Shown in pieces: positions 3,001-59,563 of a stretch of DNA of 64,000 nt. Numbering within the stretch: the stretch's first letter is position 1; the number at the start of each line of letters is the position of its first letter. Under the pieces are notes generated by a model. It made no database searches, was not told where the DNA came from, and saw nothing but the letters and a program-made list of their open reading frames with translations. The DNA comes from a virus. Lineage: Duplodnaviria; Caudoviricetes. The stretch lies in the IMG/VR virus record IMGVR_UViG_3300009671_000010, positions 32,001 through 96,000 of that record. One strand, 5' to 3'. The position numbers and the translations under genes were made by a program.

Positions 3001-5994
3001 GCAACTTTAGAATACGCCAAAGGACTTGAGTTACTTGAAAATAATATTTGTAAAACAAGAAAAGATTTAAGAAATTATATATCTGATAACATAGCTAAAG
3101 AAGTTATCAGATGCTATCGATACCATAATTTTTCTAGAGTACGTATCCCTAGATTTATTAGTATTGATGAAGATTTTTGTTATTTTATGGGATGGTGGTT
3201 AGCTGAAGGTTCATCTGATATTAAAACTGGAAATATATGTTTTACATTAAATATTAATGAAATAAATATTGCACAAAAACTTGGAGAAATTTATAAAAGA
3301 TTTTCAAATTGTTCATATAATATTAAAATTATTAAAGAAAAAAATACTTGTATTTTATCACTTAAAAATAAAGCACTTTCATTATACTTAAAAACCTATG
3401 GTAATGTATATACAAAACAACTAAATGATTTAATTTATTTACCAGATAAATTAGCTATTTCATTATTAGATGGTTTGATAAATGGTGATGGGTGGATCAA
3501 TTATGATTTACAAAGAGGTGGATTTACATCTGTGTCTGAACGACTTGTTAGAGATATATGGTTATTATTATATAGATTAGGTGTACAATCTACTATTATT
3601 TTAAATTATAAAGAGCATCCAAATGGTTATTATCCTCAAGGAACACTAAGACACATAACTACGCGATCTTGTCTTAAATTTAATAAGGATGGTTTTATTA
3701 ATTTATCGAAATGTTTTTCCACTGGAGTTTCGAATGGAGTTATATCAAATGGAAGAGTTTTTACAACAACAGAATATCTGTTTATACAGATAACTGATAT
3801 AAATTTTGTTAATTATTCTGGAAAACCTGTATATGACATAGAAGTTGAAAACTCACATTGTTTTATTGGTAATTATATATTATTACATAATTCTGAACCA
3901 ATAAGAAGACTTTTATCTAAAGAAGAATATAATGAATATCAGGTTAATCCAATACCTAATATGATGCCAAACTTTCTACCTAGTCAATTTCTTACAGGAG
4001 ATCCTTATTCTTCCATTCAAAATGGAGAATTAAGATTACCAGGTAAAGCGTATATGCTAACTAATCCAGATTTAAAACAGAGTATGCCAGGTAGAGCAAG
4101 TAGTTTAGGTGCACCATTGGAAAATATAGTTCAATATTTTACTGGTTTATTACCCCCTAATTTAAAAGAAGAATATGATATATTAGAAACTGGTACATTA
4201 TGGCATAGTAAAATACAGGATACTTTAGCTGCAGAAGGATTGCTTATTAAAGCAGAGGCACTGGTATATGATGTTAAAAATGACATATCAGGACACGTGG
4301 ATGCTATTATTAGAGATGGACAAGGTGGTAAAGGAAGAAGAGCGTTAGAAATAAAAACTATCAGCAATAAAGGATTTGAAAAGCTTGATGCTCCGAAGGA
4401 TCAACATATAGGACAACTTAATTTCTATTTACATCAACTTAGATTTAATAATGGAACTATTTTATATATTAATAGAGATAACCCATCTCAAGTTAAAACA
4501 TTCGAGTTAACTTATAATAAAAACAGATGGGAAAGGGATGTTCAAAAACTACAGCGGGCAAGACAGATAGCTAGAGATATGATGAAAGATGATGTCAGTG
4601 ATACTTTAGGTTATTCCTATTCGTGGCTTGATAGATTAAATATCTTATCTGATGTTGCTCCGATGTCTAATGAATTTAAAGAAGCCAAACAGATTGTTAT
4701 GGCTCAAATTAAGGCTGGTCAATTTACACAAAAAGATATCGATAAATATCATAGAATATTAAAACAACAAAAAGCAAGAGCTAGATCATATGAATTATAT
4801 CCATTAAGATTTAAAGGTAAAGTAATGTCTCCTGACAGTGAGTCTAATATACAATCCATTAATGAGAACATAAAAGCATCTTCAGAATATACTTTACCAG
4901 AAAGATTAATTGGAAGTGCATGGGAAACATTCACAAATTCCAGTAACCCCGCAGTTAATAAATTTTGGGCATTTAAGGATCCACTTGAACATTATAAAGA
5001 AAAGAAATTATATGGTCGTGAGTATACACCGTGGGATGAACCGTATAGAAGCTGGATTGACCCATATATTAGAACTTCTCTTAGTAAAACAAGTACTGTA
5101 GGTGGCGGAGTTTCATGGGGAACTACTGGTTATGTATTTGGAGGTGAGTTTGGAGCTTTTGCTGGAAGTATATTAGGAGCAATGTATGGTACTGTAAATG
5201 GGCTATTTAGATCTGCTTCTAATAGTGCTTATATTCCATCAGAGGTAAAAAATCAAAGAAGAATAAATGAATATTTTGATAAGCTTAAATATGAACGTTC
5301 TAATATGATGTCATCTTTAACTATGGGTAACGTTCGTAATGAATTTTTAGCTCAAAGATCTGCTACTATGTATGCATTTAATAATGAGTCTGATCCATCT
5401 GTTGGTAATTTATTTAGAGCAGCAAGTCCATCAGAAAAACCATATCTACAATCATGGATAAATACAACTGATTCTGGTGAAAGAAATGAAATTTTAAAAC
5501 TTGTTCCAAATGATTTAGGGAGTGCACTTAAGAAGGTATGGGGTAAAAATGATGGTAAAACATTTACTAGAAACAGAATTGATAATATAAGTTCTGATAT
5601 GTCTGGAAATCAACAGAATTTTAATTTTGATGCATCTTTGATGGACCCAAGAATTAACGTGGATGATATAAAATTAAAAGCAATAGAGGATTATGGATAT
5701 AATTGTCATGATTTTGGTTTAGGCTGGAATGAACAAATGTTGAGAATAAAAGAATCAGAACTCAACATACCAAAATCTAATTTAAATGATGATATACCAT
5801 ATACTCCAAATTTATCATCAACGCAAATACGAGGTCAGATATATGAATTACTTCATCAGAGTGGTATTAAATGTAACGTAAATGTCTATATTAATAATAT
5901 GGATGGTCCCAATGTTGTTAATTTAACAGTAAGAAGAGATAGATCACTTGTAGCAATTAATGCATTAAGAAATAGAAGAAAGTATGGAGTTTAA
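1..5994 (+). CDS. Giant virion-associated (tape-measure/ejected-type) protein, 5'-truncated, with two inteins and a PD-(D/E)xK nuclease domain
   Basis: Frame is open from base 1 (ATT AAT AAA TAT...), so the true start lies upstream of the window. Gly/Ala-rich hydrophobic helices; two C...HN/S inteins; motif GTLWH...E...ISGHVDAII...LEIKT...QLNFY at about 4190-4480; lies upstream of baseplate genes. Confidence 0.7.
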   Translation: MNKYEQRILQRFNDNRPVNNNTPYYSMGRGIEGIGQYLGTSMDRLTEIMGEITPFKKDPVNHFGLLGGAKYLSGTVFKIAAATTAYRIADTAIAANPLFDNSSFDDGITGMTADQLAKARLFSAKVGDTIGLTGAMKYLEGLMPGSTSTIPGLIAGAAMGTFTKTSPFGMIKAMAAGALINRVADPYIPDFSKDYQQVRREYSGEEKVPMMKSPTWLLGSTPWEGSKVAGYRPNWYVRAKSRWEASDTMYGSEFRALIHKPIFPLGFNIGDIIDPYYMERRHYFDRPYPKCLFGSAKVVTVNGIKKIKDIDIGDYVYDINGSVTKVINVLKRKVNYNDTIFSMRVIGQEEDLILTSDHKIPIIRDKKCIFKSQHNKSCTGNDKGICRYCTKKRKDFDISWVEAKDINIGDFLVKKPINPEYLGSTIDISLYVQRPFDIKENKIFIKDKLGRYTGDSFNRYWDIDNDLAYYFGLYLSEGWLGKQRGKYISVNTVHNKKEFDHINRIINNISKKYNLKFSYKDFGTHVNFYIFDYIFSDIIYGLFNCGSATKSVKFFTKELDRKILAGLFYGDGHYDKTHVVLTSINMNLINFATIVLENDFISTCLKKHCDNGHQSYRLSFSYSYLDDYRLLFDINHKNENILTSNKKLHLIYFRNGYLLKRIIKKEEIEYNDFLYDLTVESPTHSFSLYEFIVHNSGRLFSEVPIIGDLLTPIGRILKPEKTMHQEFLQGEWAGTTDGDNPSMASLPPPTYQQNMFMMNQGSGARSLGRITANGGNYTTGGITPWSKVIQGKVFGDVTEAMGLPGFLARTTAEKVFGEPEVIPTLESAGRMASMTRSFYDKNLGGMGSLCLPAYEKILTPSGFIMSEDINIGDIVYDNFYTEQKVVNKFSRLCSENENLYTITMGAGKTTISMTDEHPVAIYKRISCNDNKKRPCIPNYSKKCLTCSKRNSPIHWNWTAAKNISVGDFGVVPLPKIKSFNYIDLAKYSGYVYTDKYIYFRATLEYAKGLELLENNICKTRKDLRNYISDNIAKEVIRCYRYHNFSRVRIPRFISIDEDFCYFMGWWLAEGSSDIKTGNICFTLNINEINIAQKLGEIYKRFSNCSYNIKIIKEKNTCILSLKNKALSLYLKTYGNVYTKQLNDLIYLPDKLAISLLDGLINGDGWINYDLQRGGFTSVSERLVRDIWLLLYRLGVQSTIILNYKEHPNGYYPQGTLRHITTRSCLKFNKDGFINLSKCFSTGVSNGVISNGRVFTTTEYLFIQITDINFVNYSGKPVYDIEVENSHCFIGNYILLHNSEPIRRLLSKEEYNEYQVNPIPNMMPNFLPSQFLTGDPYSSIQNGELRLPGKAYMLTNPDLKQSMPGRASSLGAPLENIVQYFTGLLPPNLKEEYDILETGTLWHSKIQDTLAAEGLLIKAEALVYDVKNDISGHVDAIIRDGQGGKGRRALEIKTISNKGFEKLDAPKDQHIGQLNFYLHQLRFNNGTILYINRDNPSQVKTFELTYNKNRWERDVQKLQRARQIARDMMKDDVSDTLGYSYSWLDRLNILSDVAPMSNEFKEAKQIVMAQIKAGQFTQKDIDKYHRILKQQKARARSYELYPLRFKGKVMSPDSESNIQSINENIKASSEYTLPERLIGSAWETFTNSSNPAVNKFWAFKDPLEHYKEKKLYGREYTPWDEPYRSWIDPYIRTSLSKTSTVGGGVSWGTTGYVFGGEFGAFAGSILGAMYGTVNGLFRSASNSAYIPSEVKNQRRINEYFDKLKYERSNMMSSLTMGNVRNEFLAQRSATMYAFNNESDPSVGNLFRAASPSEKPYLQSWINTTDSGERNEILKLVPNDLGSALKKVWGKNDGKTFTRNRIDNISSDMSGNQQNFNFDASLMDPRINVDDIKLKAIEDYGYNCHDFGLGWNEQMLRIKESELNIPKSNLNDDIPYTPNLSSTQIRGQIYELLHQSGIKCNVNVYINNMDGPNVVNLTVRRDRSLVAINALRNRRKYGV
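871..2085 (+). mobile_element. Intein 1 with LAGLIDADG homing endonuclease (405 aa)
   Basis: N-terminal CLFGSAKVVT, block B LTSDHKI, endonuclease motifs GLYLSEG and LAGLFYGDG, C-terminal YDLTVE...FIVHN followed by Ser. Confidence 0.93.
2548..3891 (+). mobile_element. Intein 2 with LAGLIDADG homing endonuclease (448 aa)
   Basis: N-terminal CLPAYEKILT, block B MTDEHPV, motifs GWWLAEG and LDGLINGDG, C-terminal VYDIEVENSHCF...LLHN followed by Ser. Confidence 0.93.
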
Positions 5995-8900
5995 ATTGGC
6001 TTTATTCAAAAATGATGATAAAAAAGAAAAAGATAAATTCTGGTTTGTTAAAGTTGCTACTAATGCAGCTATTGCTGGTGGAGCTTTTTATGGATTTAAA
6101 AAGGTAAAAGGACCAGCTGGATCAATCATTAAAAAAATTACAGATACAAATATAAATACAACTGTTGAAAAAGAAGCAGCTAAATACATTAAAACTTCAG
6201 AAGAATTTTCTAATGGTTACAATCCTTTTGATGAAGATGATTTAATTAATCCAAATATTCCAGATCAAATGATGACAATGACTGAATCTCTTATAAGTTC
6301 TAGTGAGGATAGTCTTATATCTGAAATAAATACTCTCAGTAATACTGATAAAGAATTTGGTGAAAAGTTTTCTATTTTCTACTCTAGATTTAATAGTCTT
6401 GAAAAATATGCAATTTCATATGGTCTTGATGGTGAAGATGCACATATAATTTTAGCACTTAGATCTGTTGTTCAAAAAGCACTTGCAAATGGCGTAGTTG
6501 ATGATAGTATTATTTCTAAGGTTAATTCATTACATGAAAAGTATTTAAAGCAAAACGCTTATGGTGTTTTATATCAAAGCCAATTACATCATCTTAAAAA
6601 TAATGCCAGGAAAGTTGTATTTGATAATATGTCATCGAAAGATGTATTAAAAAAATCAATTCTTGGTGATGTTACAACTGACTTAAGTTCTAAAGTAGAA
6701 TCACATCTTCTTGCTGATTTATTTAAAAGGAATAAATCTATCGAGGAATTTGTTCCTGGACAGATTAACAGTGCTCTTACACATGAGCTTGGTTCAACTA
6801 TATCTTCTTTCAAAAAAACAGTTGACTATAATCCACTACTTACAAGGATAGATGACAAACTTAGTTTAATCGAAGCAAAACCAAATTCCAGTATTACTTC
6901 ACATGCTATTCAAATAGCTAGAGATACAAATGGAAAACAGTGGGCTCATATAAATATAACTTTAAATAGCGGGAAGACACACACATTGGAAGTTCCACTT
7001 GCAAAAAATATGATTGTTCCAGGTTCAAATTCAACTGTAAGTTCATATGTTGATATGTTATTCACATTTGGTGGATCTCCAGCAAGTCCATATCAAAATG
7101 TGAAAAGTGCATTAAATTCAAGTGAATATATATTACATACAATATCAAAAAGACTTGATACTAATTCTTCTTTTATGAGTGAGTTTATTAGTGATACTAG
7201 TAATGCTATTCATAGATTAAATAATGAAATTAATGGAATACTTGATAACCTTACAATATATCAAGGTAAACCTGGTCAGTTGATATTACAATTATATAAT
7301 CCAGAATATGATAAACTTTTACATCAAAATGGTGAAGCTGGTCAAAGACAATATGACAAAATGAATCGTGCATTAAATAATATGTCTATGATGAATAGAA
7401 TGGTTCAATATAAAAAAGAAATAAAAAGTGGTAGAATTGGACGTGTATTTATAGTATCATTGGATACAGAAACGATAATGGCATCACAAACACATATACC
7501 TGGTTTAGAACACACTGCTAGAAATCCACAAACTCACTTAGTACAAATTGGTATTGACATAGCAGAGGTTAACAATTCTATGACTCCTAAAGTAGTGGAA
7601 TCTAAAAGATTTTATAGTGATCATGCTACTAATGCTTTGAAAAAAGATAATCTTTTTGATACAAAACAAATGGAATTCATACGTAAGGTTACACCTGGAG
7701 TTGATGCAAGTACAAGTATTGATGAAGTTATAAGCAAATATACTGAACATATTAAATTAAAAACTGATCAAACTGGAACGCGTGCTGCTAATGATACACA
7801 ATTTGCAGACAGTCTTTTAGATTATCTTGATCAATTCTTTGAACACAGTAAAACTGGTAAACTTGGTATTAATGATAAAGTTGTTATAGTTACAAAAAAT
7901 GGTCAACAATATGATTTACCATTGATTAAATTACATGCTACTAAAATGAAATGGAATAAATTTGAACGTAAATATAAAAATATGATTGATACTGGTTCTC
8001 TTGGGGTAATAGAATCAAAATATAATTTCGATGATAGTCCCCTTGGATTGGATTCCGTTATGAAAGGTATTCTTAATAGAACAGGTTTTGGAGATCCGAA
8101 TGTCGATTTTAATAATCCTAAAGTCATAGGAAGTGTATTAGATCATTTTGAAAGAAAAGGTTATCTTACAATTGATAATAATGTTAAAAAACAATTACAG
8201 GGTGCACTAACTCAAACGCATGGTGAAGCAGTAGTGGATGCATTATTTAACATAGTCATATATCAGGATATGTTTCTAAAGGCATCTACTAAAAGAGGGA
8301 TTTGGGATACATCTACACAATTAAAATTAAGAAAAGTAAATGATATGTTTCATGGATCTGCTTCTATTTATGAAAATGTTTTAACTAGAATGGAAAATGA
8401 CTCAGCTTATTTTAATGGGAAATTATTTACTGGATTTTTATCATCTGCTAATAGAGCTACAAAGGGTGCCTTGTATGAAGAATCAGCTGGAGCATTGTAT
8501 GCTTTTGGAGGTGGGTCTAACTTATCTAAACAGATATATCAAAATTTATCTGGACATACATTATCACGAAATATAAACATATCACCAAAAAAAGGTAGAA
8601 ACATTTTTAGAAAAACACTAACTACATTACCCGCTGTTGAATTACATCTAAAAAGAGAAAAAGCAAATAAACAAGCTGGTCTATATAGAGGTAAAGGAGT
8701 AACTCATAACAGTATAACTGTTAAATCAGCTCAAGTTATTTACTCTGCTGCAGAAACTGAAGGTTTGGCAATTTTATCTACTGACATAGCTAAGCAGGTT
8801 AATGTATTACATGATATGAATGTAAATATTAGTTCTATTAATTTTAGCGGAAATAGTACAGATGTAGGACCTCGTATTGATAAGTTTAAAAATATATTAT

Positions 8901-11900
8901 TAGATGCAATGTTAAATGAAAAGAGTAGTAAGCCAGGAAGTATAATTGATATTAATAGATTAGCAAAAAGAATTGCTTCGAGACCCGATATTAATCTTGC
9001 TAGACTACCGCGAGGTACTACTATTGGATCAGGTGATCTTGGACAGATTATATTGAAACATACAGCTAATATTGAGGATTTTGAAATTACACCAATAGAT
9101 GTTAATGGTAGAATTGATTTGGATATACGTGTAAAAATATCAAGAAAGGCTAGGGTTGATGGAAGTGAAGCATGGAAGGCTCGTGATATAAGTGGAAATA
9201 AATCTGTTCTTACATACTCTGATCCAAGTCAAAAAATAAATGGATTATATGGACATGATTTTAGAACTGAAGCAAAATGGATAAAAGATGGTAATGTTTC
9301 AGCTTTTAAAGATTCAGCTGTAAATAAAATTATAGGCACATTACAAGAACAAATTTATTCTGGTGATAGAAAACAATCTATACAAGCTAAATGGCAATTA
9401 AGAAAATTTGCAAGGGAAATTGGCGCTGACATAGTTAAAGATGAATTAATACTTAATCCTTATAAAATGAAAAAAACTAAGTATAAGCATTTGGGTAAAA
9501 AGGAAGAACAGCTTGCACACGCTATTTATGGGGCTCTAGACATCAGTTTAGATACAATCAATAGGTATATGAAGCCTGTTGGCAGTACGTGGTCTAGTGA
9601 GCGTTTAAAGGAGTTTTATGCTAATTTTGGAGGCGGGGATTATAATAAAGGTAGAAGTATTGCTAAAAGATTAGCTGATTCAATGTATGATAAAGCTGTT
9701 TCTAAATTAAAAAATGCAAGTCAGGAAGCATTATATTCAGTTAGTAAAGGTGATGTTTTAAAGGTAGAAGAAGAATATAGAAGAATAGCTGATTCTATAT
9801 ATCAACCAAAAGAAGGCGATACAATTTTTGCTGAATGGGCTAACTCTGATCCTAATGTCAAAAGTTCACATAAATCACTTATATTCTCCTCATTCAGTGA
9901 AATAAGTTTACATTCAGGTAGTATCACTGGAGAAGGTTTCGGATATCATACATTAAAAATGAGTAATAATGTAGTAGATCATATTCTTAGGTCAGATTAT
10001 ATTTCAAAAACTACTAAGGATATGGTTTCCAGTAATAGAGTCTATTATAGAGATGATATAAAGGCGAAAGCTAAAAAATCATTGGATAAATTTAAAAGAG
10101 AAGTATTTGCTGAAGCTTCTATGGCAACACATCTTGATCTTAATGAAATTAATAAATTATTATCTAGACCTGGGACTGAAATGCTTTCTTCTAATAATTT
10201 GGCAAAAAGTATTGATGAAGAGTTGAAAAAAAATATAGCTGGTTATAATATAGAAGCAGATGATATTCTTATTGATGTTAAAGATTCTATGATGACAACG
10301 ATTGAAAAATATAAAGATCATCTAGTTATGATTGATAATGAACTTGATGATCCAGAAAAATTTAGAGAGTATAAAGAAAAACTTGTTTCAAATATTATTT
10401 CACATCATAGAATGGAAACTGCTTTAAAAAAACAAAGTAAATTCGTTACCTATGAAGAAACAAGTGTATGGGCAAAAATGGCTAAAGAGCATAATAATAT
10501 TTTTAGGATTAGTAATAGTGTATCTGGTTTACCAGCAGTATTTGATATTGATATGAATAAAACCTTTAATTCTATTTATGGATCTACAAATTATTCTAAG
10601 CAACAGAAAAATTTATTTGTTAAAATGCTTAATGATATGTTAAAATATCAGCAAAAAAATAAAGTCGATGGACCAATTATATCTATTGATGGAGATAATG
10701 TTAAACTTAGAGAATTATTTATACCAGCACATGATGTAGCAGCAAACATAGCTGACAAAGTTGCTGGACCAATTGCTAGGGAAACTCCAGAAACATATAG
10801 TTCTAAAAGATTCTTACAATCAGTTGTATCTTATGCTAATGGTTTAACTATGCAGGGATGGACAGATGTTAATGCTAAAAGTTCCTATGAAACTATGATT
10901 AAGTTCTGGACTATGCATATTCTTGATACAACTATTGGTAATAAATCTGTATATGGTCAATGGCAGTCATCTAATTTAAAAGTTCAACAGTTTAAATCAA
11001 AAGGTGCTGAAAATTTATATATACAGGCACTTGAAATAAAAAATGCAGGAGGTATGAAAGCTATAGCCAAAGATAAAAATGTATCAGCTGATTATATACG
11101 TAGAGGTAATGAGATTCTTGAACAAATTTTAAATTCAAAATTTAATACTACATTCATATCAGAGACTGCATTTAAAAAAATGAAAGTTGACATAGGTGCG
11201 GGATTATCTACATCGTCAGAATCATATCTCAAGTCATTATCTACTAAGCAGGATAATCTATATAAAAGAATAGTTTCTGGTGAACAGAAAATGATTGGTT
11301 TTTCTACTCGTTATCCAAATGAACCACAGGGACAACACGCAATGATGGATACCATGATTCAGGTTATACCTGATGAATATAAAAAATATTTCCTAATGGA
11401 TGACTGGAGTGCATATACATATGATATATTTACTCAAATGATTAAGATGGACCATGATGGTGATGTTAATAACATCGGTTTAACCAATGTTAATACTATT
11501 GAAAAATTTAGGACTCACCGTAAAGAAATAAAGAATAAATCAAAATTATTATTTCAAAAAATTACTAATGTTATAGAAAAGCAAAAATATGATTATCATA
11601 CATGGATGAGACCTATAGGACTTGATGAAAATGGTGTTATGGATATACTTACATTTGATAAAGTAACCTATAGTCCCAGGGTTATAAAAAAAGAACTAAC
11701 TCAAGCATCTACTGATGAATTAGCTGAATTATTTGCTGGAGACAATATGTCAGCTTTTATTGCTGGATATGGTACTCAACTTCCTGAATTCATGACTGGT
11801 AGAGGATTAAATGCTATTAGGGTTCAAGCTGCATCGGCTGCTGCCACTAAAGATACTATGGGTATTGCAACCAATAGTGTAATGCGTGCAAACATAGCTA

Positions 11901-12919
11901 TGAAAGCTGGACTAGTTAAAGATCAGCATATTATTAATGATTTTTTTGGTGACATGAAAACTGGTTTAGGACGATTTTTACAAGATGTTACTGGTATTAC
12001 AAAAAATCCTACATTAGAAAAAATTATATCATTATCTAGGCAACTTGAAGTTTTACATGGAAAAACATCTGATCTTGAAGCAGTTGAACAATTTAAAGAT
12101 AGTTATATTAAAACATTTGAAAATGAGGCTAAATCTCTTGGTGATGAATATGATTTATTTCTTAATAAAAAAGGTTCTTTTTATGAGAATAAGAAAAATC
12201 AAATAGATACATATATCATGGTTAATAAAATTATTAATACGGCTAATAGAAATAGTGTTACGTTTAGAGATGCATATAAACAAGTTGTTCAATCTGAAAT
12301 GAATTCACCATCCAGAGGTTTGACTAGTATTTTTAATCAACCAGAAGATATTGGGCGTGATGATATATTTGCTGGAGTTCTAGAAAATGCAAGGCAAAAT
12401 CATTTTTATGAAACAAGTTCTATATTTGATGAGTTTTCTGAAAACTTTAAAAATAAAATAAAACTTAGTCATCCTATTATTAATAATAGTAAAAAATTTG
12501 CTAAATATGGTGCTATTGGTGCATCGGTGTTCTTAGCTGCTAATTTCTTTAGGTCAAATCAATTAAGTTCATCAGCCAATCCTTTAGATATGTTTGTTGA
12601 CTTAGATAATAATATAAATTCTGACAATAATATTTTTTCTTCTGATTTACAACTTGATAGAGGATCTTCACTTGAAATGGTAGATGCGTCATTCTCTAAA
12701 AAAGCTTTTGTTAGAATGAATAAAATACAACAAGGTAAAATGAATCAATATAAGTCAAAACAAATTAATAGTATTTTAGGCAGTATGTCTGAAAATTACT
12801 CAAATACAGGCTTTAATGTTTCAAATAGAGATATAGTAACCAATGCGAACTATACTAGTCATATTGGTAAATTCGGTAATAATAATATAGTAAGAAAGAG
12901 AAAATATGGTGGTTATTAA
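5984..12919 (+). CDS. Putative single-subunit two-barrel (DPBB) DNA-dependent RNA polymerase with an N-terminal DEDD/DnaQ-like exonuclease domain; probably virion-packaged
   Basis: DEDD motifs LDTET, KNGQQYDLPLI, HGEAVVD; beta-like WKARDISGNKSV; beta'-like STRYP...KMDHDGDV. Start may be TTG at 5996 (GGAG Shine-Dalgarno). Confidence 0.72.
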   Translation: MEFKLALFKNDDKKEKDKFWFVKVATNAAIAGGAFYGFKKVKGPAGSIIKKITDTNINTTVEKEAAKYIKTSEEFSNGYNPFDEDDLINPNIPDQMMTMTESLISSSEDSLISEINTLSNTDKEFGEKFSIFYSRFNSLEKYAISYGLDGEDAHIILALRSVVQKALANGVVDDSIISKVNSLHEKYLKQNAYGVLYQSQLHHLKNNARKVVFDNMSSKDVLKKSILGDVTTDLSSKVESHLLADLFKRNKSIEEFVPGQINSALTHELGSTISSFKKTVDYNPLLTRIDDKLSLIEAKPNSSITSHAIQIARDTNGKQWAHINITLNSGKTHTLEVPLAKNMIVPGSNSTVSSYVDMLFTFGGSPASPYQNVKSALNSSEYILHTISKRLDTNSSFMSEFISDTSNAIHRLNNEINGILDNLTIYQGKPGQLILQLYNPEYDKLLHQNGEAGQRQYDKMNRALNNMSMMNRMVQYKKEIKSGRIGRVFIVSLDTETIMASQTHIPGLEHTARNPQTHLVQIGIDIAEVNNSMTPKVVESKRFYSDHATNALKKDNLFDTKQMEFIRKVTPGVDASTSIDEVISKYTEHIKLKTDQTGTRAANDTQFADSLLDYLDQFFEHSKTGKLGINDKVVIVTKNGQQYDLPLIKLHATKMKWNKFERKYKNMIDTGSLGVIESKYNFDDSPLGLDSVMKGILNRTGFGDPNVDFNNPKVIGSVLDHFERKGYLTIDNNVKKQLQGALTQTHGEAVVDALFNIVIYQDMFLKASTKRGIWDTSTQLKLRKVNDMFHGSASIYENVLTRMENDSAYFNGKLFTGFLSSANRATKGALYEESAGALYAFGGGSNLSKQIYQNLSGHTLSRNINISPKKGRNIFRKTLTTLPAVELHLKREKANKQAGLYRGKGVTHNSITVKSAQVIYSAAETEGLAILSTDIAKQVNVLHDMNVNISSINFSGNSTDVGPRIDKFKNILLDAMLNEKSSKPGSIIDINRLAKRIASRPDINLARLPRGTTIGSGDLGQIILKHTANIEDFEITPIDVNGRIDLDIRVKISRKARVDGSEAWKARDISGNKSVLTYSDPSQKINGLYGHDFRTEAKWIKDGNVSAFKDSAVNKIIGTLQEQIYSGDRKQSIQAKWQLRKFAREIGADIVKDELILNPYKMKKTKYKHLGKKEEQLAHAIYGALDISLDTINRYMKPVGSTWSSERLKEFYANFGGGDYNKGRSIAKRLADSMYDKAVSKLKNASQEALYSVSKGDVLKVEEEYRRIADSIYQPKEGDTIFAEWANSDPNVKSSHKSLIFSSFSEISLHSGSITGEGFGYHTLKMSNNVVDHILRSDYISKTTKDMVSSNRVYYRDDIKAKAKKSLDKFKREVFAEASMATHLDLNEINKLLSRPGTEMLSSNNLAKSIDEELKKNIAGYNIEADDILIDVKDSMMTTIEKYKDHLVMIDNELDDPEKFREYKEKLVSNIISHHRMETALKKQSKFVTYEETSVWAKMAKEHNNIFRISNSVSGLPAVFDIDMNKTFNSIYGSTNYSKQQKNLFVKMLNDMLKYQQKNKVDGPIISIDGDNVKLRELFIPAHDVAANIADKVAGPIARETPETYSSKRFLQSVVSYANGLTMQGWTDVNAKSSYETMIKFWTMHILDTTIGNKSVYGQWQSSNLKVQQFKSKGAENLYIQALEIKNAGGMKAIAKDKNVSADYIRRGNEILEQILNSKFNTTFISETAFKKMKVDIGAGLSTSSESYLKSLSTKQDNLYKRIVSGEQKMIGFSTRYPNEPQGQHAMMDTMIQVIPDEYKKYFLMDDWSAYTYDIFTQMIKMDHDGDVNNIGLTNVNTIEKFRTHRKEIKNKSKLLFQKITNVIEKQKYDYHTWMRPIGLDENGVMDILTFDKVTYSPRVIKKELTQASTDELAELFAGDNMSAFIAGYGTQLPEFMTGRGLNAIRVQAASAAATKDTMGIATNSVMRANIAMKAGLVKDQHIINDFFGDMKTGLGRFLQDVTGITKNPTLEKIISLSRQLEVLHGKTSDLEAVEQFKDSYIKTFENEAKSLGDEYDLFLNKKGSFYENKKNQIDTYIMVNKIINTANRNSVTFRDAYKQVVQSEMNSPSRGLTSIFNQPEDIGRDDIFAGVLENARQNHFYETSSIFDEFSENFKNKIKLSHPIINNSKKFAKYGAIGASVFLAANFFRSNQLSSSANPLDMFVDLDNNINSDNNIFSSDLQLDRGSSLEMVDASFSKKAFVRMNKIQQGKMNQYKSKQINSILGSMSENYSNTGFNVSNRDIVTNANYTSHIGKFGNNNIVRKRKYGGY

Positions 12920-13088
12920 TCTAACTATTGATCTACAGGATGGAATACAACCTGATAATATTATTTCATCTATTCAAGCAATCTTATCTCAAATTACAAA
13001 TAATCAAACTATGGTTAATGTTAATGAAGTAAATGATCCCATATCATTAAGTCCTATATCTTTTAATAAAATTGGAGATTCTGAATGA
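12906..13088 (+). CDS. Small hypothetical protein (60 aa)
   Basis: Fills the gap between two giant genes, overlaps both and is coupled by ATGA to the next gene. Confidence 0.6.
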   Translation: MVVINLTIDLQDGIQPDNIISSIQAILSQITNNQTMVNVNEVNDPISLSPISFNKIGDSE

Positions 13089-16000
13089 CTAGTAATCTGC
13101 TGTCTATCTGTACATATCTTAAATCTGTTTTTGTTTTAGAACATGATAAATATTATTCTTTTGATTATTCATCAAATATGTCTAAAACTGTATCAATTAA
13201 AAATATAATTAATGATGAATTAAATAAAATAGATGCCAAAATTAATTTTAATAAACAGATTAGATCAGTTGATTTTCAACTTGGAGACATAGTATATAAA
13301 GATTCTATTAATGAATTATATATTATACTTGGTGTTGATGGTGATAAAGTATTTACTTTTCCAGACAGTAAAAATGCAAAATGGATTAATACATCTACTA
13401 AGTCATATACAGTTATAAGACCTGATTACAGTTCTGTTAAAATGGATAATATAAATACTAGAATTAATGATAATATTACTAAAGATATAACTAATAAACT
13501 TAAATCTAATGAAGGTACGTTTATAACTAATTATAATCAGTTACCTGATTCATCATTACAAATTGGAGACATAGTTGTTGCTGTCGATCCAATACAAATA
13601 TCTTTTAGTACTCAGAATGGATATCAATATTATCCTACAGTTAGAACTAATGGTAATCCTATTCTTCCATCCCCGCAGCAAATTAAGAATATATCAGTAG
13701 TTCTTATATTTCCAAATGAAGATTCTATTAATAATCAGCTATTGAATATATATGCAATGTACAGAAGAACCCCTTTTGTTAATATTCGTAATAAACATAT
13801 ATGTGATTTTTTTAAAGATATTAAATCTGAAAAATCAGATTATATACCTGTAGCATTAGAAAGTATAAATATTGAATCTGTATCTGGATTTCCAAATACA
13901 TTACAGGCAACTCTTACTTTACTTCCATTTGATCCTAGGGTTATATCAAACGGATTATTAGCATTAAGATCATTATCTGATGTACAAAATCAAACTATTG
14001 ATAATGATTATCTTTTAAAAGAATATAATAAAGCTATTGAAAGAATGGATAGTAGTTTATATAATTCAAATACTTTCAAAAATGAAGATATTATAACTAA
14101 ACCTGTCAGATATTCTGATGATTTTAGAGAAAGTCTTCCATTTAGAGCATTCTATCAATCAATGATATCTGAAAAAAAATATGTAGAAGATGAATATGGA
14201 AATGTTGTTCCAATTAAAGATATATCTGGTATCGAAATAGCAGATGGATATGATATAAGTGCATATAGACCAACTAATAGTTATAATATGTTACATAGAT
14301 ATACTTCAATTGATAATATTAAACCTATTTCTTTCAAATATTCATATCTTAAAGATGATTATAGATCACTTATAAAAGATATATCCAAAAATAGAGTTAT
14401 AAATCAAGAAGAACTTGTTAATAAATTAAAGGATACTCTTATTCAATTAAATTCTAAAGATACAATGATAAGTTCTATATTTACAAGTTGTTTGTCTTTT
14501 AAGGATTATGTTGCTGAAACTGAATTTACATGGAATAAAGTTGATAATGCACTTAGAAATCTTTTTATTGAAAGTGGAATAGATGTACCTAATCAGAGAG
14601 TAAATTACAATCTTTCTGAAAAAGATATTGGAAATAATGTTACTTCTTTATTTAAGTTTCTTATAGAAAATATAATGAGGAGTGGTTCGAATGCAGTTGG
14701 ATATAATGCACTAAAAAATATACGATCTATAGTTGATGGAAGAAACATAGTAGTAGATGATTATATTGGTTTACTTAATCAATTATATGTTCAAACAGAT
14801 AATGAATTTAACTCTGGAACCAAACTTGTAGGTCTACCAACTTTAATAGATAATATATGGAAATGGTTAAATATAAATGATAATAATAAAATTGCATTTG
14901 CACAATTTTTAAAGAATTGGACTGAAGCACTTGCTAATGATCTTAATACTGGAATAATGACTACTGATATATCATCTCCATCATCTGATATTCAAGGAAA
15001 AAAAATATATAGATTACCTATAGAAAATGATACTATATCTATTGATTCTAAAAATAATATTATTCAGAACTGGAACATAGTGTTTAGCAATAAATTTGTA
15101 CCTATCAATATACAATCTTTTAAATATCCATTTTATCAACACCTTGGTAGTGAAAATGCATCAATTAATCTAAACATAGTTTCTGTTAATAATTCTGATT
15201 TTATTTCAAAAATTTCACAGTTATCTGATAGATTATTAGATTCTTCAAAAGTTTTATCAATGTGTTGTCCTGAATTATTAACATGGCTTGACTCTAGAAT
15301 AACAGTCGAATCTGATACAAATAATATATTTAATGTATTTGGATTTAATAAAGTATCTTATAATTCTTCTAATATTACAAATATACAGGGTCAGCCTGGA
15401 TGTTGGAACATTGTATTGAATTTAACACAATCAAATATAAGTGTAGCTGATTATACAAACATACAACAAGAAAATGATAATTATGCTTATATAGAAGAAC
15501 TTGCTAAATTTATATGTAGGTTACAGATTGAAAATGATAATATAATTGTAGTTGATTATTATAATGAAGATAATACTCTTATAACTGATTTAGAAGATAT
15601 GATAAAATGTTCTTTTATGTTTTCTAAGTATATGGTTATGCTTAATGATGAAACTGGATATTTATCCACTGTAAAAGATAATAGTGTTACTTTGGGTAAA
15701 AAAAAGCTTTTAGCTGATCTTAAAAAGAATGGTGTATATAGTATCATTAATGGTTCTTTAAGTAGTGTACTTAATAACTTTTTTTCTAAAAATGATATAT
15801 TCTATAAAGAATTAAAGACAGTTTTATTTAATGTTGATAAATTACATAAAAAAGAATATCTATTATTTAATAATTTATTAGCAGACAAAAAAAAAATATT
15901 TGAAAGTAATAATGTTAAATTTACCGATGTTTTGTTTGCAGTAATTGGTCCAAATAGATTATTTACTATTTCCAGTATTGTTAATAAAAGTGTTGGTACT

Positions 16001-19000
16001 GTAAGTAAAAATATATTACATAATCAGTTAAACAAAATCCTTATTAGTACTACAAATAGATTTAAAGGATTAATTGATTCATATAAAAAAGAAGTAACTA
16101 TTTCACTTGCACATTCTATTATAAAAGATCCTGCTATGATTAATAACTTAGTTAAGTATAAATTCTTACCAGAATCTGTAAAAAAAACAAATACTTATTC
16201 TAACTGTTATCCAGATTTTGATATTCCTAATTTTTCAATAGATAATAAATTTACAGTATTATCACCTGATTTTTATTTATATAAACCTTCCGTATATAGT
16301 AAAGATATATATGAATATTTAAATACATCACTCGATACAATTTCAAGAGTAGATAATCTTTCTCAAATGATAAATTTTAGTGACTATGAAAGTTATATTA
16401 ATAAATATGAAGATATACGCTCTAAGATTGATTTTGATTCTACTAAGTTAGATAAGATTGATAAAATATTACAATATAAAACAAATATAACAGATTCACT
16501 TGATTATGTTAGAAAACAATATTTTAATTTAATTCTAGAAGATAAGACAGAGATATCTAAAGATGATAGTGATAAGATAGTCGCAATTTTGGATACACTT
16601 GATAATGATGTAAGATTTAAAAATAATCCTGATCAAGTAGCTGCTATAAAGTCTTATTATGGTATGGTTTTAAGAATAAGAGGAACATCGCAACATATTA
16701 ATACTGATGAATTTAAAATTGATATGATAAAAGCCGCAAGAATGGGTCTGATAGTTGAAATACTAGAAATATATGTAGCAATTAATGAATTCTTAGGTGC
16801 TATTGTTAAAAACAGATCAGATGATTATATTAATAGTGTTGTTAAAACAGCAGCAACAAATGTTTCATTAAAATCAATTTTTGATAAATTTTTTTCAAGT
16901 TCAAATAACATTGCTGATACAAATAAAATTCTTGTTACATCCTTAACTGATATTCAATTTAAAGTTAAGAAGATATTAGAAAATCCAGAAACCAATGTTT
17001 TACCTGATAAAATTAATATTAATTTTCAAAAAGGTTTACCATATAATCCAGATGATAAAAAATATACAGTTCTTCCAGAATTACAAGTATTAGAAACTAA
17101 TTTATATAATAAAATAGGTTCATTGATAAGAATGAATTTATTTATTGATGATGTTAAATCTAATGTTGCTAAGAAAGTTAATGTATCAGATTATGTACCA
17201 GAATATGCTGCACTTGATTATTGGAATGTTCAACAAAAAGAATCTAATAAAGAAAGAGTTGATTTACTACAACAACTACAGAATGCAACATCACATCATA
17301 ATAATGGATTTCTTAAAATGTATCCAACCTTTAAAATATATTTTGTTGAAGAAAATAAAGGGCTTACATTTGAATTTAGTAACTATTTTTCTTACAATGC
17401 TGTACAATCTATAGAAATAATTAAACAGAAATCATCTGCAAGTAATACAGCAGTAATAAGACTGAGTAACATTGCTGGAAATTTAAGTGATAGATTTAGT
17501 TTTATGAGAGAACAAGTTGATACATTTGCTGCAGTAAATCCTAATGTTAATAATATTAAATTTCTCGGTACTCTTAATATCAAACCAGGTACCCAGATGA
17601 TAGTTAAACAAGGTTATGCTTCAGATGAAAAAAATCTTAAAACTGTATTTATTGGGAAAATAATTGAAATGAATCCTGGTCCTGATATTGAAATTATATG
17701 TCAAAGTTATGGTGCACAGTTATCATATGAAATTCCAAGAATGAAATTTAATATGTTTTCCAGAGAAAAAGCATATGGTGAGATAGTTAGTGCTATTTTG
17801 GATAAAATTCCAGACTTGAATAAAATGGGTAAATTTGATTTATTTAATCAAGGATTACAAACTTTTTCTGGAATAAATCTTAGAAATTATAAAAGTAATT
17901 TTTATGAAAGATTTATGTTATCGAATTTATTTGGTAAAGTGAGTGCATTGGAATTTGCTAAGGATAATCCACGAGATGAGAATATATATCTTCCATATAA
18001 TTTATTAATCAATTCATTATATCATCCTACATTTGACTGGATAATATATAATCAGTCTATTTGGGAAGCTATACAAGAAATATGTTTATATAATGATAAC
18101 GCTACCCCAATGGTAAAAATATTTAATGATGATTTTATGAGTAATAAGAATCAGATAAGAGAAACACTGGTAATAGGCGATAAATCAGGATATTATAAAT
18201 ATACAGATTCATTTGCATTAAGTTCACTGGATTATAAAAAAATTGATGAAGTGATTAAAGAATCTAGTACCATTATAAGTACAATTTTATCTTTTAAAAT
18301 AGATGCATTCAATAAAGAAGAGACACAAAGACGTGGTTTTTTTATATCAAATACAGGTAATAGATATAAACTTAATAGTAATCTTATTAATGTGTATTCA
18401 TTTTTCCAAAATGAATTGAATGTAAAAGTTATGATAAAATATTTAATGAGTAAAATTGAATTTACTACTAAAGTTGACATAAGTGATATAATGGAAGTTA
18501 TTACTGGTTCATCTTCTCTTTTTACCAAAAAAGATTCTAATACAGAATTACTTAGTAGTATTTGTAAGTTTTATTCACTCGGACCAATCACTGATGATAT
18601 CAGAGAATATTATTTTGATTCAGCTAGGGCAAATGATATGAATCGAATTGAATATTTTAATGATATTATAAAGTATATACAAAAAAGTAATCTTGATTTT
18701 AATCTAAATAAAGAAATGTTATATGATGTAAATACTGTATTATCTAATAAGGATGATAACCTAGCTTCTAACTTACAGTATAAAAAGATACAACAACATC
18801 ATCTTATTACTGATACTAGGGATATTATTTCGAATAATATTATCTTAAATTCTTCTTTTGCAAATTCAGTTAACTTATATTATTTTGATGAACCAAAATT
18901 TCAACATGCTAGTATGGAATTGATAACTGAAAAAGATATTAATAATTTAAAGATTTTTCCTATTAAAGCATTCGGTGATATACAGGATAGTGGACTTAGA

Positions 19001-19897
19001 CCATTAAATTCTTTTCAAAAAAATATAGATACAAACTGGTTTGATGTAAAAAATAAATCAGATCTTTTCTATAATAAATATAAACGTATATATAATAATC
19101 ATGATGATTTAAAGAAATATTTATCTAAAAATGATACTGATTCTCCATCATGGGATTTTTTCCCATCTTTTGTAATTACTGCTGTTAATTTATTAAAGCA
19201 AGAAGTTTCTAAGATGTATCAAGGAACTATTGATATAATAGGTAATCCAGAGATAGAACCATATGACATAGTACATATTTCTGATTATACCAATGATATA
19301 CATGGAGCTGTAGAAGTTGAAGAAGTAATACATACATTTACTCCAGATAGAGGATTTATCACAACTATTACTCCTAATTTAATAACATATGATAGAGATC
19401 CAATACAATTACAAGATATTGAAGTTATTAATAATGTATTAAATGTTGCTAATGATAGAGCAAGAGCTGAAACTTTAATAAGTTTTGGAACAAATATGGT
19501 TGGTGCTTCAACAGGATTTTTGCTTAGTGGTATTGGTGGAATTGTAACAAGTACACTTGCTACTGGTAATTTCTTATATAATGGAATATATAATGTTATT
19601 ATGAAAAAACAAAAATTTCTATATGATCAAATGGCTCAAATACTTGGACGAGATTGTATTAATTTTACAACACTTATATATCATGGACTTCCATATATTA
19701 CTGGTTTTGATGGAGTTGATTATGAAAATCTAAAAACTATTATTAGGCATAATGTAGCTGGTATTAAAAATCCAGTAACAAGACTGGCTGCATTTTGGGA
19801 CCCATATGAAGCTGGTTTAATAAGAGGTGTTGATGATTTTAAAGCTATCAATGCATTAACTCCATCATTTTTACGATTTTTACCAAATAGGAAATAA
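13085..19897 (+). CDS. Giant virion structural protein with C-terminal baseplate-hub (gp27/late-control D-like) region
   Basis: Hub-type motifs IKPGTQMIVKQGY...TVFIGKIIEM...EIICQSYG and YQGTIDIIGNPEIEPYDIVHI...VEVEEVIHTFT..GFITTI; directly precedes spike/gp25/J genes. Confidence 0.65.
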   Translation: MTSNLLSICTYLKSVFVLEHDKYYSFDYSSNMSKTVSIKNIINDELNKIDAKINFNKQIRSVDFQLGDIVYKDSINELYIILGVDGDKVFTFPDSKNAKWINTSTKSYTVIRPDYSSVKMDNINTRINDNITKDITNKLKSNEGTFITNYNQLPDSSLQIGDIVVAVDPIQISFSTQNGYQYYPTVRTNGNPILPSPQQIKNISVVLIFPNEDSINNQLLNIYAMYRRTPFVNIRNKHICDFFKDIKSEKSDYIPVALESINIESVSGFPNTLQATLTLLPFDPRVISNGLLALRSLSDVQNQTIDNDYLLKEYNKAIERMDSSLYNSNTFKNEDIITKPVRYSDDFRESLPFRAFYQSMISEKKYVEDEYGNVVPIKDISGIEIADGYDISAYRPTNSYNMLHRYTSIDNIKPISFKYSYLKDDYRSLIKDISKNRVINQEELVNKLKDTLIQLNSKDTMISSIFTSCLSFKDYVAETEFTWNKVDNALRNLFIESGIDVPNQRVNYNLSEKDIGNNVTSLFKFLIENIMRSGSNAVGYNALKNIRSIVDGRNIVVDDYIGLLNQLYVQTDNEFNSGTKLVGLPTLIDNIWKWLNINDNNKIAFAQFLKNWTEALANDLNTGIMTTDISSPSSDIQGKKIYRLPIENDTISIDSKNNIIQNWNIVFSNKFVPINIQSFKYPFYQHLGSENASINLNIVSVNNSDFISKISQLSDRLLDSSKVLSMCCPELLTWLDSRITVESDTNNIFNVFGFNKVSYNSSNITNIQGQPGCWNIVLNLTQSNISVADYTNIQQENDNYAYIEELAKFICRLQIENDNIIVVDYYNEDNTLITDLEDMIKCSFMFSKYMVMLNDETGYLSTVKDNSVTLGKKKLLADLKKNGVYSIINGSLSSVLNNFFSKNDIFYKELKTVLFNVDKLHKKEYLLFNNLLADKKKIFESNNVKFTDVLFAVIGPNRLFTISSIVNKSVGTVSKNILHNQLNKILISTTNRFKGLIDSYKKEVTISLAHSIIKDPAMINNLVKYKFLPESVKKTNTYSNCYPDFDIPNFSIDNKFTVLSPDFYLYKPSVYSKDIYEYLNTSLDTISRVDNLSQMINFSDYESYINKYEDIRSKIDFDSTKLDKIDKILQYKTNITDSLDYVRKQYFNLILEDKTEISKDDSDKIVAILDTLDNDVRFKNNPDQVAAIKSYYGMVLRIRGTSQHINTDEFKIDMIKAARMGLIVEILEIYVAINEFLGAIVKNRSDDYINSVVKTAATNVSLKSIFDKFFSSSNNIADTNKILVTSLTDIQFKVKKILENPETNVLPDKININFQKGLPYNPDDKKYTVLPELQVLETNLYNKIGSLIRMNLFIDDVKSNVAKKVNVSDYVPEYAALDYWNVQQKESNKERVDLLQQLQNATSHHNNGFLKMYPTFKIYFVEENKGLTFEFSNYFSYNAVQSIEIIKQKSSASNTAVIRLSNIAGNLSDRFSFMREQVDTFAAVNPNVNNIKFLGTLNIKPGTQMIVKQGYASDEKNLKTVFIGKIIEMNPGPDIEIICQSYGAQLSYEIPRMKFNMFSREKAYGEIVSAILDKIPDLNKMGKFDLFNQGLQTFSGINLRNYKSNFYERFMLSNLFGKVSALEFAKDNPRDENIYLPYNLLINSLYHPTFDWIIYNQSIWEAIQEICLYNDNATPMVKIFNDDFMSNKNQIRETLVIGDKSGYYKYTDSFALSSLDYKKIDEVIKESSTIISTILSFKIDAFNKEETQRRGFFISNTGNRYKLNSNLINVYSFFQNELNVKVMIKYLMSKIEFTTKVDISDIMEVITGSSSLFTKKDSNTELLSSICKFYSLGPITDDIREYYFDSARANDMNRIEYFNDIIKYIQKSNLDFNLNKEMLYDVNTVLSNKDDNLASNLQYKKIQQHHLITDTRDIISNNIILNSSFANSVNLYYFDEPKFQHASMELITEKDINNLKIFPIKAFGDIQDSGLRPLNSFQKNIDTNWFDVKNKSDLFYNKYKRIYNNHDDLKKYLSKNDTDSPSWDFFPSFVITAVNLLKQEVSKMYQGTIDIIGNPEIEPYDIVHISDYTNDIHGAVEVEEVIHTFTPDRGFITTITPNLITYDRDPIQLQDIEVINNVLNVANDRARAETLISFGTNMVGASTGFLLSGIGGIVTSTLATGNFLYNGIYNVIMKKQKFLYDQMAQILGRDCINFTTLIYHGLPYITGFDGVDYENLKTIIRHNVAGIKNPVTRLAAFWDPYEAGLIRGVDDFKAINALTPSFLRFLPNRK

Positions 19898-21189: not shown

Positions 21190-22446
21190 ATGCCAATCAG
21201 TAGAACATATCTGGAAGTATATCGAGATGGTCAACGTAGACTTAGAAATAATACACCAGTAACTAATTTTAATCAACAAAGTTTATCAAAAGCATTCTTA
21301 GATATCATGTCTGTTGAAGTTGAAAAGATATATAGTGACATAGATTTTATATACAGTTCATTAGATCCAACTAGAGCATCTGGTTCTGATTTGGATAAAC
21401 TTGGACTTCTTGTTGGAGTTAAACGTAATGAAGCTACAGTCGCTGTCGATGAGACTGATACAAACTTCTACTTTTACATAGATCTGAAAGTTGATTGGAA
21501 TATACAAAAACTAATTTATAGTTTATACTCTGAACAAGAAATAGATCTTCTCGAATCAAATGGTTATGTTGTTAAAACTAATGGGTATGTCAGTAGACTT
21601 ATCCTACCTAGAGGAATAGTTATTAGTAATTATGATAATACAATTACATATACGACTATTGATGAGATTACCTTTGATGCAGATGATACAAGCAAATATG
21701 TAGGAATTATAGCAACAGGTACTGGACCCGAGTATAATGTCATTAGTAATATTTTAATTAATCATAATATTTCTACTATACCAGAATTAATTAAACTTGC
21801 ATCTATGATTAAATGTACAAATACTTTTCCTATACAAAATGGTTCATATTCTATGACTGATGATGAATATAGATATAATATAAGCATAGCAAAATCAGCA
21901 CTTAATTCTAATGAGCTTTCTATTAGAAAATCAGCATTAGAAATTCCAGGAATTAGAGATATATTATTTGAAAAAAATAAATTTGGTAATGGTACTATTA
22001 ATATAATAGTTGATGGTGTATCTCCACTCATTTCAGATGGATTGTTGCTTGCTGTTAAAGAAAATGTACAAAAAAATATGGCATTCGGTGATGTATTATT
22101 TGTTTCATCACCTGAATATATTGGAATAGAATTGAATTTCAATATAGAATTAGAACTCGGTATAACAGATTCATTATCAATTAGAAATCAAGCTAGAAAT
22201 ACAGTTATACAATATATTAATAATTTAACTATTGGTGGTGAAATAATTTGGAATCAATTGGTTGCTAATGTATTAGAAATTGATGGAATTAAAGATTTTA
22301 TTCCAGTTTATTTTAAATGTGGAAAATATGATCCTGTTAATAAAATTAATAAAGAACAAATTATACTTCGATTTGTTAATCAAACAGCTAAATATAATGA
22401 AAAATTTTATTGTGATGCTGGCATGATAACTACCTGCATAGCATAA
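21190..22446 (+). CDS. Baseplate J/gp47-like wedge protein
   Basis: RASGSDLDKLGLLVGVKR, ATGTGPEYNV, MTDDEYRYNI, IPGIRD...GNGTINIIV, YINNLTIGGEI motifs. Confidence 0.88.
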   Translation: MPISRTYLEVYRDGQRRLRNNTPVTNFNQQSLSKAFLDIMSVEVEKIYSDIDFIYSSLDPTRASGSDLDKLGLLVGVKRNEATVAVDETDTNFYFYIDLKVDWNIQKLIYSLYSEQEIDLLESNGYVVKTNGYVSRLILPRGIVISNYDNTITYTTIDEITFDADDTSKYVGIIATGTGPEYNVISNILINHNISTIPELIKLASMIKCTNTFPIQNGSYSMTDDEYRYNISIAKSALNSNELSIRKSALEIPGIRDILFEKNKFGNGTINIIVDGVSPLISDGLLLAVKENVQKNMAFGDVLFVSSPEYIGIELNFNIELELGITDSLSIRNQARNTVIQYINNLTIGGEIIWNQLVANVLEIDGIKDFIPVYFKCGKYDPVNKINKEQIILRFVNQTAKYNEKFYCDAGMITTCIA

Positions 22447-34099: not shown

Positions 34100-34477
34100 A
34101 TGGAAATTAAAGCATCTAATTTTTTGAATCAAAGATTTATCGATGCATATCGTTCGTTGGCAGAAAAAGACAATCTTGGCATATCAACTATGTCGGTAAT
34201 TAAAGTTATTAAAAAACTTTCAGAAGAACATGAGGTTTTCGAAAAGACAAGGTTAAGTATTTTTAAAAAATACGGTACACTTGAAGGTGAACAATATGTG
34301 GTCAAAGCATCTAATTTAGATGAAAAACAATTTGAAGATTTTACCAAAGAAATCAATGATTTACATGAATCAAATATTAATATTCCTATTGATTCAAAAA
34401 TAAAAATTTCATATAAATGTGGATTAAAACCTGTTGAATTTATTCTATTAGATGAATTTATTGAAGCCAGTGAATAA
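34100..34477 (+). CDS. Small acidic helical protein after tail fibre (DUF1617-like, possible fibre chaperone)
   Basis: Strong AAGGAGGG RBS; FEKTRLSIFKKYG...FTKEINDL pattern. Confidence 0.55.
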   Translation: MEIKASNFLNQRFIDAYRSLAEKDNLGISTMSVIKVIKKLSEEHEVFEKTRLSIFKKYGTLEGEQYVVKASNLDEKQFEDFTKEINDLHESNINIPIDSKIKISYKCGLKPVEFILLDEFIEASE

Positions 34478-54097: not shown

Positions 54098-54116
54098 TGT
54101 GTATCTTTCTATTTAA

Positions 54117-57402: not shown

Positions 57403-57410
57403 TATATCTC

Positions 57411-57998: not shown

Positions 57999-58000
57999 TA

Positions 58001-59306: not shown

Positions 59307-59563
59307 TTTCTATACCATCCCATTTTGTTCATTTCAATTTCTGGTATTTGTTGCAGTGAAAATCCATCAGGTAATACAAGAATTGGTCGTTCCATATTTA
59401 ATTGTTTCAAACCATCGAATAAAGATTTAACTATTTCTTCCATCTCTGAAACTTTGATATTTTTTGTATCAACTGTACAAACTAATATACTTGAATCATT
59501 TAGATTTAATGAATTTAATTTATCCATTAATAAATCACTATACACTATTTTTCTTAGATTCAT
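59303..59563 (-). CDS. Hypothetical protein
   Basis: 86-aa ORF coupled to neighbours. Confidence 0.6.
   Translation of the reverse strand: MNLRKIVYSDLLMDKLNSLNLNDSSILVCTVDTKNIKVSEMEEIVKSLFDGLKQLNMERPILVLPDGFSLQQIPEIEMNKMGWYRK

Follow-up and report, generated by a model that had tools for sequence, protein, structure and literature searches.

A 64,000-nucleotide stretch of a jumbo phage genome (the window; bases 32001-96000 of the 111,472-bp IMG/VR record IMGVR_UViG_3300009671_000010) encodes a protein that we call giant 2, the middle gene product of three conserved giants. The best explanation of the evidence as a whole, which we hold with good confidence, is that giant 2 carries a DEDDh 3'-5' exonuclease fused upstream of a beta'-type barrel, and is a tail-module protein that would act at phage entry. 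An earlier note on the window had proposed a DEDD exonuclease domain fused to a putative RNA polymerase; the results below bear on both halves of that proposal. All members of the giant 2 family come from uncultured metagenomic contigs.

An intact but very divergent DEDDh domain

The DEDD motifs named in the earlier note and the accompanying LVQIG strand all lie in frame in the plus-strand open reading frame of giant 2, and the coordinates that the note gave are correct (Table 1). On either strand of positions 7300-8400, the longest other open stretch has 79 codons. The third motif carries His and not Tyr, which places the domain among the DEDDh enzymes, and its H746-x5-D752 spacing is, as the note had observed, one residue longer than the canonical H-x4-D, which four or five of the homologues have. 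The second motif reads N-G-x-x-Y-D-L-P-L, a spacing that appears similar to that of TREX1/2; the residue before D644 is aromatic in the homologues, with Ile in one.

Conservation was assessed in an alignment of 16 non-identical homologues, in which identity between clades is 17-25%. Invariance is confined to 24 of the 2,311 positions. D494, E496, N639, D669, H746 and D752 of the exonuclease domain account for six of them, and D1823, D1825 and D1827 of a downstream D-x-D-x-D motif for three more. D644 is Asp in 15 of the 16 sequences and Glu in the remaining one, so the conservation of acidic residues that the earlier note had asked after was found, together with that of the His, in all homologues. 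The mean pairwise identity of the domain is about 23%, and the retention of the catalytic set through such drift indicates that it is held by selection. A chance match to the motifs is ruled out by the same conservation. An exonuclease that survives only as a structural relic, without catalysis, would agree with a sequence extremely far from all profiles and with the presence of two large inserts, but the drift seen elsewhere in the domain has spared the catalytic positions, all of them invariant or conservatively D/E, which makes a relic hardly credible.

An AlphaFold2 model of amino acids (aa) 468-806, built from an 11-row alignment, reached a mean predicted local distance difference test (pLDDT) score of 83.5 and a predicted template modelling (pTM) score of 0.84. 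The predicted structure has the DnaQ-like architecture, an RNase H-like alpha/beta fold superposable on solved DEDDh members. Foldseek searches of the PDB returned DEDD exonucleases for all top matches (E from 3e-4), comprising Pop2/CAF1, DNA polymerase III epsilon, the exonuclease domains of herpesvirus and RB69 polymerases, RNase T, TREX2, Orn, REXO2 and PARN; the BFVD matches were all viral exonucleases, exonuclease domains of viral family B DNA polymerases (PolB) or phage DEDDh proteins. Defence-linked proteins, namely Cap18 and a Cas2-DnaQ domain, were also among the structural matches.

The alignment with epsilon covers model residues 21-298 and chain residues 6-180, with the 175-aa epsilon core aligned end to end. 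D494/E496 fall on epsilon D12/E14 and D752 on epsilon D167, the one-residue insertion sitting before D752. In the model, D494 and E496 lie in strand 21-33; strand 165-170 is followed by helix 173-184, at whose start N639 and D644 are found; D669 ends strand 199-202; and H746 stands just ahead of the last long helix (282-301), inside which D752 is located. Two inserts double the size of the domain: the first, with model helices 93-102, 112-130 and 137-154, is without counterpart in the epsilon core, and the second has helices 222-232, 245-257 and 265-274. Taken together, motifs, conservation and predicted fold identify residues ~487-768 of giant 2 as an intact but very divergent DEDDh (DnaQ/TREX/RNase T-type) domain with two lineage-specific helical inserts.

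The polymerase-like core and the family-wide fusion

The barrel with the DxDGD motif lies in the same polypeptide, about 900 residues downstream of the exonuclease domain. An AlphaFold2 model of aa 1000-2150 was mediocre overall (pLDDT 63.8, pTM 0.44), with a better stretch at about model residues 490-950. The best 50 PDB matches from Foldseek were all largest subunits of multisubunit RNA polymerases (E from 2e-4). Model residues 664-900 align to E. coli beta' 345-627, and also to the beta' subunit of the AR9 non-virion RNA polymerase, the largest subunits of Pol IV/V and generic double-psi barrel domains. An unfiltered wide fold search was likewise led by RNA polymerases, including those of AR9 and PhiKZ, P74 gp62, P23-45 gp96 and QDE-1. 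In the predicted model, the D-x-D-x-D loop is located inside a beta'-type double-psi barrel, as in two-barrel RNA polymerases. Pfam gave no RNA polymerase match on giant 2, and PDB profile searches returned no RNA polymerase. Judging from the model, the downstream core is probably a cell-type RNA polymerase. A complex prediction for the exonuclease domain with aa 1480-2100 scored 0.00 and provides no evidence either way.

A different identity for the core has to be considered at this point, namely a PolD-like DNA polymerase or primase-like enzyme with the DEDDh domain as its proofreader. A fused 3'-5' DEDD exonuclease is the hallmark of replicative DNA polymerases. The two-barrel enzyme PolD does make DNA (PMC7281927). 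The fold matches, however, are RNA polymerases, with PolD absent among the matches listed, and the gene sits in the tail module. Moreover, a family B DNA polymerase is already encoded both by the source genome and by a complete relative (G001, L031/L032; 230,193 bp). Since the phage has its own PolB, we consider a PolD-like enzyme with a proofreader very improbable. PolA genes were not found in the source genome or the relative, and neither gave a match for a recognisable Rpb1-type gene (PF00623). A search of both with the C-terminal region of giant 2 as query revealed no second copy that could be a non-virion paralogue.

The survey of homologues suggested in the earlier note showed the same fusion in every family member. 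Full-length homologues have 2,286-2,452 aa and occur in the same three-giant arrangement. A phmmer search of 1.84 billion representative proteins, with the 339-aa domain as query, matched only five other clusters, all of 2,286-2,378 aa and all at an equal relative position within the protein; further full-length loci came from IMG/VR and from JGI metagenomes, which were scanned as well. In a word-indexed protein search, even with the alignment as input, nothing came up apart from the query and a single relative of 57% identity, and none of the 50,697 phage records searched by tblastn matched giant 2 or the domain. Deeply diverged as the family is, each of its members keeps the exonuclease joined to the polymerase-like core.

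Gene setting and possible roles at entry

CheckV estimates the completeness of the 111,472-bp record at 48%, from which a genome of roughly 230 kb follows; the G+C content is 21-36%. The gene order is large terminase, portal, major capsid, sheath, lytic protein, three giants and then baseplate (Table 1). Because the three giants stand between sheath and baseplate genes, the slot that they fill is that of the tape measure in a jumbo phage with a contractile tail, and the giant 2 gene occupies this slot with the sheath, lytic protein and baseplate J genes around the trio. The same trio, with the giant 2 homologue in the middle, is present in the P0002 contig, in L002-L005 and in all metagenome loci that are long enough.

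Table 1. Features of giant 2 and its surroundings. Positions are those of the window unless another record is named.
Feature	Position	Strand	Size or residues	Remarks
Giant 2 (P0001), exonuclease and polymerase-like core	5984..12919	+	2,311 aa	From the open reading frame list and translation
Gly/Ala-rich hydrophobic N-terminal segment, then KGPAG	6038..6118	+		Giant 2; K40 and G43 invariant
DnaQ-like DEDDh 3'-5' exonuclease domain	7442..8287	+	aa 487-768	Giant 2
Exo I, D494-x-E496 in SLDTETI	7463-7465, 7469-7471	+		Strand beta1; invariant 16/16
Helical insert 1	7661..7846	+	aa 560-621	Family-specific; between beta3/alphaA region and beta4
Exo II, N639-G-x-x-Y-D644 in TKNGQQYDLPLI	7898-7900, 7913-7915	+		Helix start after beta4
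D669 of the [IV]-D motif (IDT)	7988-7990	+		End of beta5; invariant 16/16
Helical insert 2	8048..8206	+	aa 689-741	Family-specific; between beta5 and Exo III
Exo III, H746-x5-D752 in THGEAVVD	8219-8221, 8237-8239	+		Both invariant 16/16; predicted general-base His and fourth acidic residue
Beta'-type double-psi beta-barrel region	10970..11680	+	aa 1663-1899	Foldseek on predicted model
R-Y-P (R1776, P1778), like beta' NRxP	11309..11317	+		P1778 invariant; R in 14/16
D1823-H-D1825-G-D1827, predicted metal-binding motif	11450..11464	+		Three Asp invariant 16/16
C-terminal region of giant 2	12494..12919	+		Hydrophobic segment, SFS motif, RKRKYGGY end
Tail sheath	L007:5670-8411		913 aa	Upstream of giants
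Protein with lytic transglycosylase region			711 aa	Between sheath and giant 1
Giant 1	Gene start genome 29286 (L007:13286), end window 5994		~2,902 aa	
Giant 3	13085-19897		2,270 aa	
Baseplate J/wedge protein	21190-22446			3' side of the three giants
Family B DNA polymerase	G000:C1:110644-111093	-	Open frame 892 aa	Outside window, near record end

The domain would be an active two-metal hydrolase, with D494, E496, D644 and D752 holding the metals and H746 as general base, and its action would be to cut nucleotides off free 3'-OH ends. By analogy with gp96 of phage P23-45, the giant 2 protein may ride in the virion, in the tail lumen or as ejected cargo, and enter the host with the DNA, in which case the exonuclease would be at work next to the polymerase as soon as infection begins. 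As to the substrate, we tentatively favour DNA 3' ends at the entry site, with the exonuclease trimming or resecting the incoming genome end. Such trimming might make the end fit for use by the polymerase delivered with it or for end joining, possibly in a joint action with a Cas4/RecB-type nuclease region of giant 1 (PHROG matches at aa ~1376-1506 of its window-borne part). This leaning towards DNA ends is based on that nuclease and on the fact that several of the top structural neighbours are DNA enzymes, together with the apparent likeness of the Exo II spacing to TREX1/2; with the nuclease of giant 1, the slot may deliver both polarities of end processing.

Several results weigh against the reading of giant 2 as an exonuclease-polymerase that acts at entry. 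Neither the whole protein nor the domain gave a match in Pfam (RNase_T, PF00929, none at E <= 1) or in PHROGs; a six-frame search of the whole source genome with PF00929 returned nothing at E <= 10; and PDB sequences, searched by phmmer and by family profile, yielded only noise. The hhalign comparison, unsuccessful with the single E. coli DnaQ sequence, was collinear through all motifs with a seven-sequence DnaQ alignment (E. coli epsilon and six phage proteins) at a weak P of 0.03. The profile search against the DEDDh/RNase T family that the earlier note recommended was thus negative in Pfam and weakly positive with hhalign, and superfamily membership therefore rests on structure and motifs: the domain is in the DEDDh superfamily by fold and active site and outside Pfam RNase_T as defined.

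On the polymerase side, the part of the proposed fusion that held is the invariant DxDGD in a beta'-type double-psi barrel; a second, beta-type barrel with its basic residues was not demonstrated in the model, which starts at aa 1000 and has pLDDT below 50 in its first 100 residues. The pair K1065...K1073 in WKARDISGNKSV (window 9173-9208), considered as the beta-subunit K-x7-K, is not conserved in the 16-sequence alignment; this region falls in the low-confidence part of the predicted model. The virion location is deduced only from where the gene lies. The ends of the 230,193-bp relative gave no check on an end-processing role: the 'direct terminal repeat' behind its '100% complete' label is a mere 117-bp exact overlap, which looks more like a circular assembly than a true terminal repeat, and in the outermost 20 kb on each side nearly all genes lie on the plus strand, so that real termini and entry polarity cannot be read from this record. 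Finally, DNA-acting exonucleases and the RNA-acting DEDDh enzymes 3'hExo, Orn, RNase T, ERI, PARN and Pop2 are equal in Z, and the structural matches therefore do not decide the substrate.

That tie bears directly on the possibility that the exonuclease serves the polymerase on RNA, trimming the 3' ends of nascent or backtracked transcripts for proofreading, arrest rescue or release. It would then replace Gre/TFIIS-assisted cleavage, in an arrangement analogous to coronavirus nsp14 ExoN and its RNA polymerase. The two modules are fused without exception across the family at about 20% identity, with both active sites equally invariant, and RNA-acting enzymes score as well as DNA-acting ones. 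Against this stand the long separation of the exonuclease from the DxDGD barrel, the established ability of two-barrel RNA polymerases to cut RNA in their own active site, and the fact that no specific RNA-binding feature was found. We consider a role in transcript trimming unlikely, though a serious alternative. Decidedly unlikely is the narrower proposal that the domain is dedicated to RNA 3'-end proofreading or to arrest rescue on behalf of the DNA-dependent two-barrel RNA polymerase to which it is attached. If the latter were true, giant 2 would offer the first case of a proofreading exonuclease fused as a separate unit to a cell-type RNA polymerase, comparable to DNA polymerases and to coronavirus ExoN.

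The neighbouring giants are relevant to a further alternative, according to which the exonuclease works independently, as a nuclease injected for takeover or counter-defence that degrades host DNA or RNA, or defence nucleic acids, immediately on entry, and has no more than its delivery vehicle in common with the polymerase. The nuclease of giant 1 and a lysin-like region of giant 3 make the slot look like a multi-enzyme cargo, and the defence-linked matches Cap18 and Cas2-DnaQ point in the same direction. The exonuclease, however, is never found apart from the polymerase, be it as a protein of its own or in another giant, as the phmmer search returned giants of this type alone, and a processive attack on the host chromosome would require free 3' ends. 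On balance this alternative is doubtful.

Other features of the giants were also recorded. Giant 1 contains an intein (LAGLIDADG_3 and Intein_splicing matches, aa ~943-1280 of its window-borne part) and a weak lysyl-oxidase-like match. Giant 3 has no Pfam match; its aa 1897-2104 match a 1,954-position PHROG annotated 'endolysin', and it is a candidate for the real tape measure or for a hub carrying a lytic domain. The C-terminal region of giant 2 is the best-conserved part of the protein (mean identity 42%). Giants 1 and 2 have no common similarity detectable by BLAST; both have a Gly/Ala-rich hydrophobic start near residues 30-55 and an R-[KR]-K-Y-G end (12890-12916 in giant 2), features that may be a packaging or processing signal. 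Elsewhere in the window, a 429-aa protein with radical-SAM PHROG matches (34477-35766) lies amid tail and fibre genes, and a minus-strand gene run (52946-63766) includes two glycosyltransferase-like proteins, one of which has 1,232 aa with extra uncharacterised regions.

Relation to known systems

Virion-delivered RNA polymerases, as in N4, crAss-like, phiKZ-like and P23-45 phages, allow phage transcription to start without the host enzyme. A conserved, apparently active exonuclease on such an enzyme points to an unstudied genome-entry step in a widespread lineage of uncultured contractile-tailed jumbo phages, a step that might consist in the processing of ends, preparation of the template, editing of transcripts or an attack on nucleic acids of the host. 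The family is invisible to Pfam and PHROGs, and current annotation pipelines therefore miss both activities. With its modest size of about 340 aa, the domain lends itself to expression and assay, which makes the question of its function directly testable.

The earlier note had called the architecture unfamiliar, and in agreement with this the full-text literature searched does not describe any fusion between a DEDD exonuclease and an RNA polymerase of a phage. A survey of jumbo phages likewise lists no exonuclease-fused RNA polymerase (PMC7824862).

The DnaQ-like DEDDh enzymes (polymerase III epsilon, TREX1/2, ExoI, RNase T and the N-terminal domain of S. aureus DinG) carry Exo I-III on the same structural elements as the giant 2 domain. 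The latter differs in having about 340 aa instead of about 175, in its H-x5-D spacing, in being invisible to profiles and in its location inside a 2,311-aa tail-module protein. It is a new, highly divergent branch of the textbook DEDDh superfamily.

Physical coupling of a 3'-5' exonuclease to a polymerase is also seen in family B DNA polymerases, in PolD (DP1/DP2) and in nsp12/nsp14, but all of these are replicases. The PolD nuclease is Mre11-like and not DEDDh, and nsp14 is a separate protein whose partner is an unrelated RNA-dependent RNA polymerase. In giant 2, by contrast, what the exonuclease is coupled to looks like an RNA polymerase of the cell type that depends on DNA, in a phage with its own PolB.

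Among virion-delivered enzymes, gp66 of phi14:2, a crAss-like phage, and gp50 of N4 resemble giant 2 in being polymerases fused to large uncharacterised regions, according to a published summary (PMC10770324). Both belong to podoviruses, and N4 gp50 is T7-like rather than two-barrel. Neither protein is known to carry an exonuclease domain. 6VR4 was absent among the fold matches listed.

The closest known case is P23-45 gp96, a tape-measure-fused virion two-barrel RNA polymerase that transcribes the first-entering genes (PMC10770324; PDB 8H2N/8H2M). It is alike in being a giant protein of the tape-measure slot with a single-chain core, putatively of two-barrel type in giant 2, and a DxDxD motif; PDB sequence and profile searches detected no sequence similarity between the two. 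P23-45 is a siphovirus with one 5,002-aa tape measure, and the paper on it mentions no nuclease (PMC10770324). Giant 2 differs in belonging to a contractile-tailed jumbo phage, in carrying its exonuclease upstream of the core and in being one of three giants.

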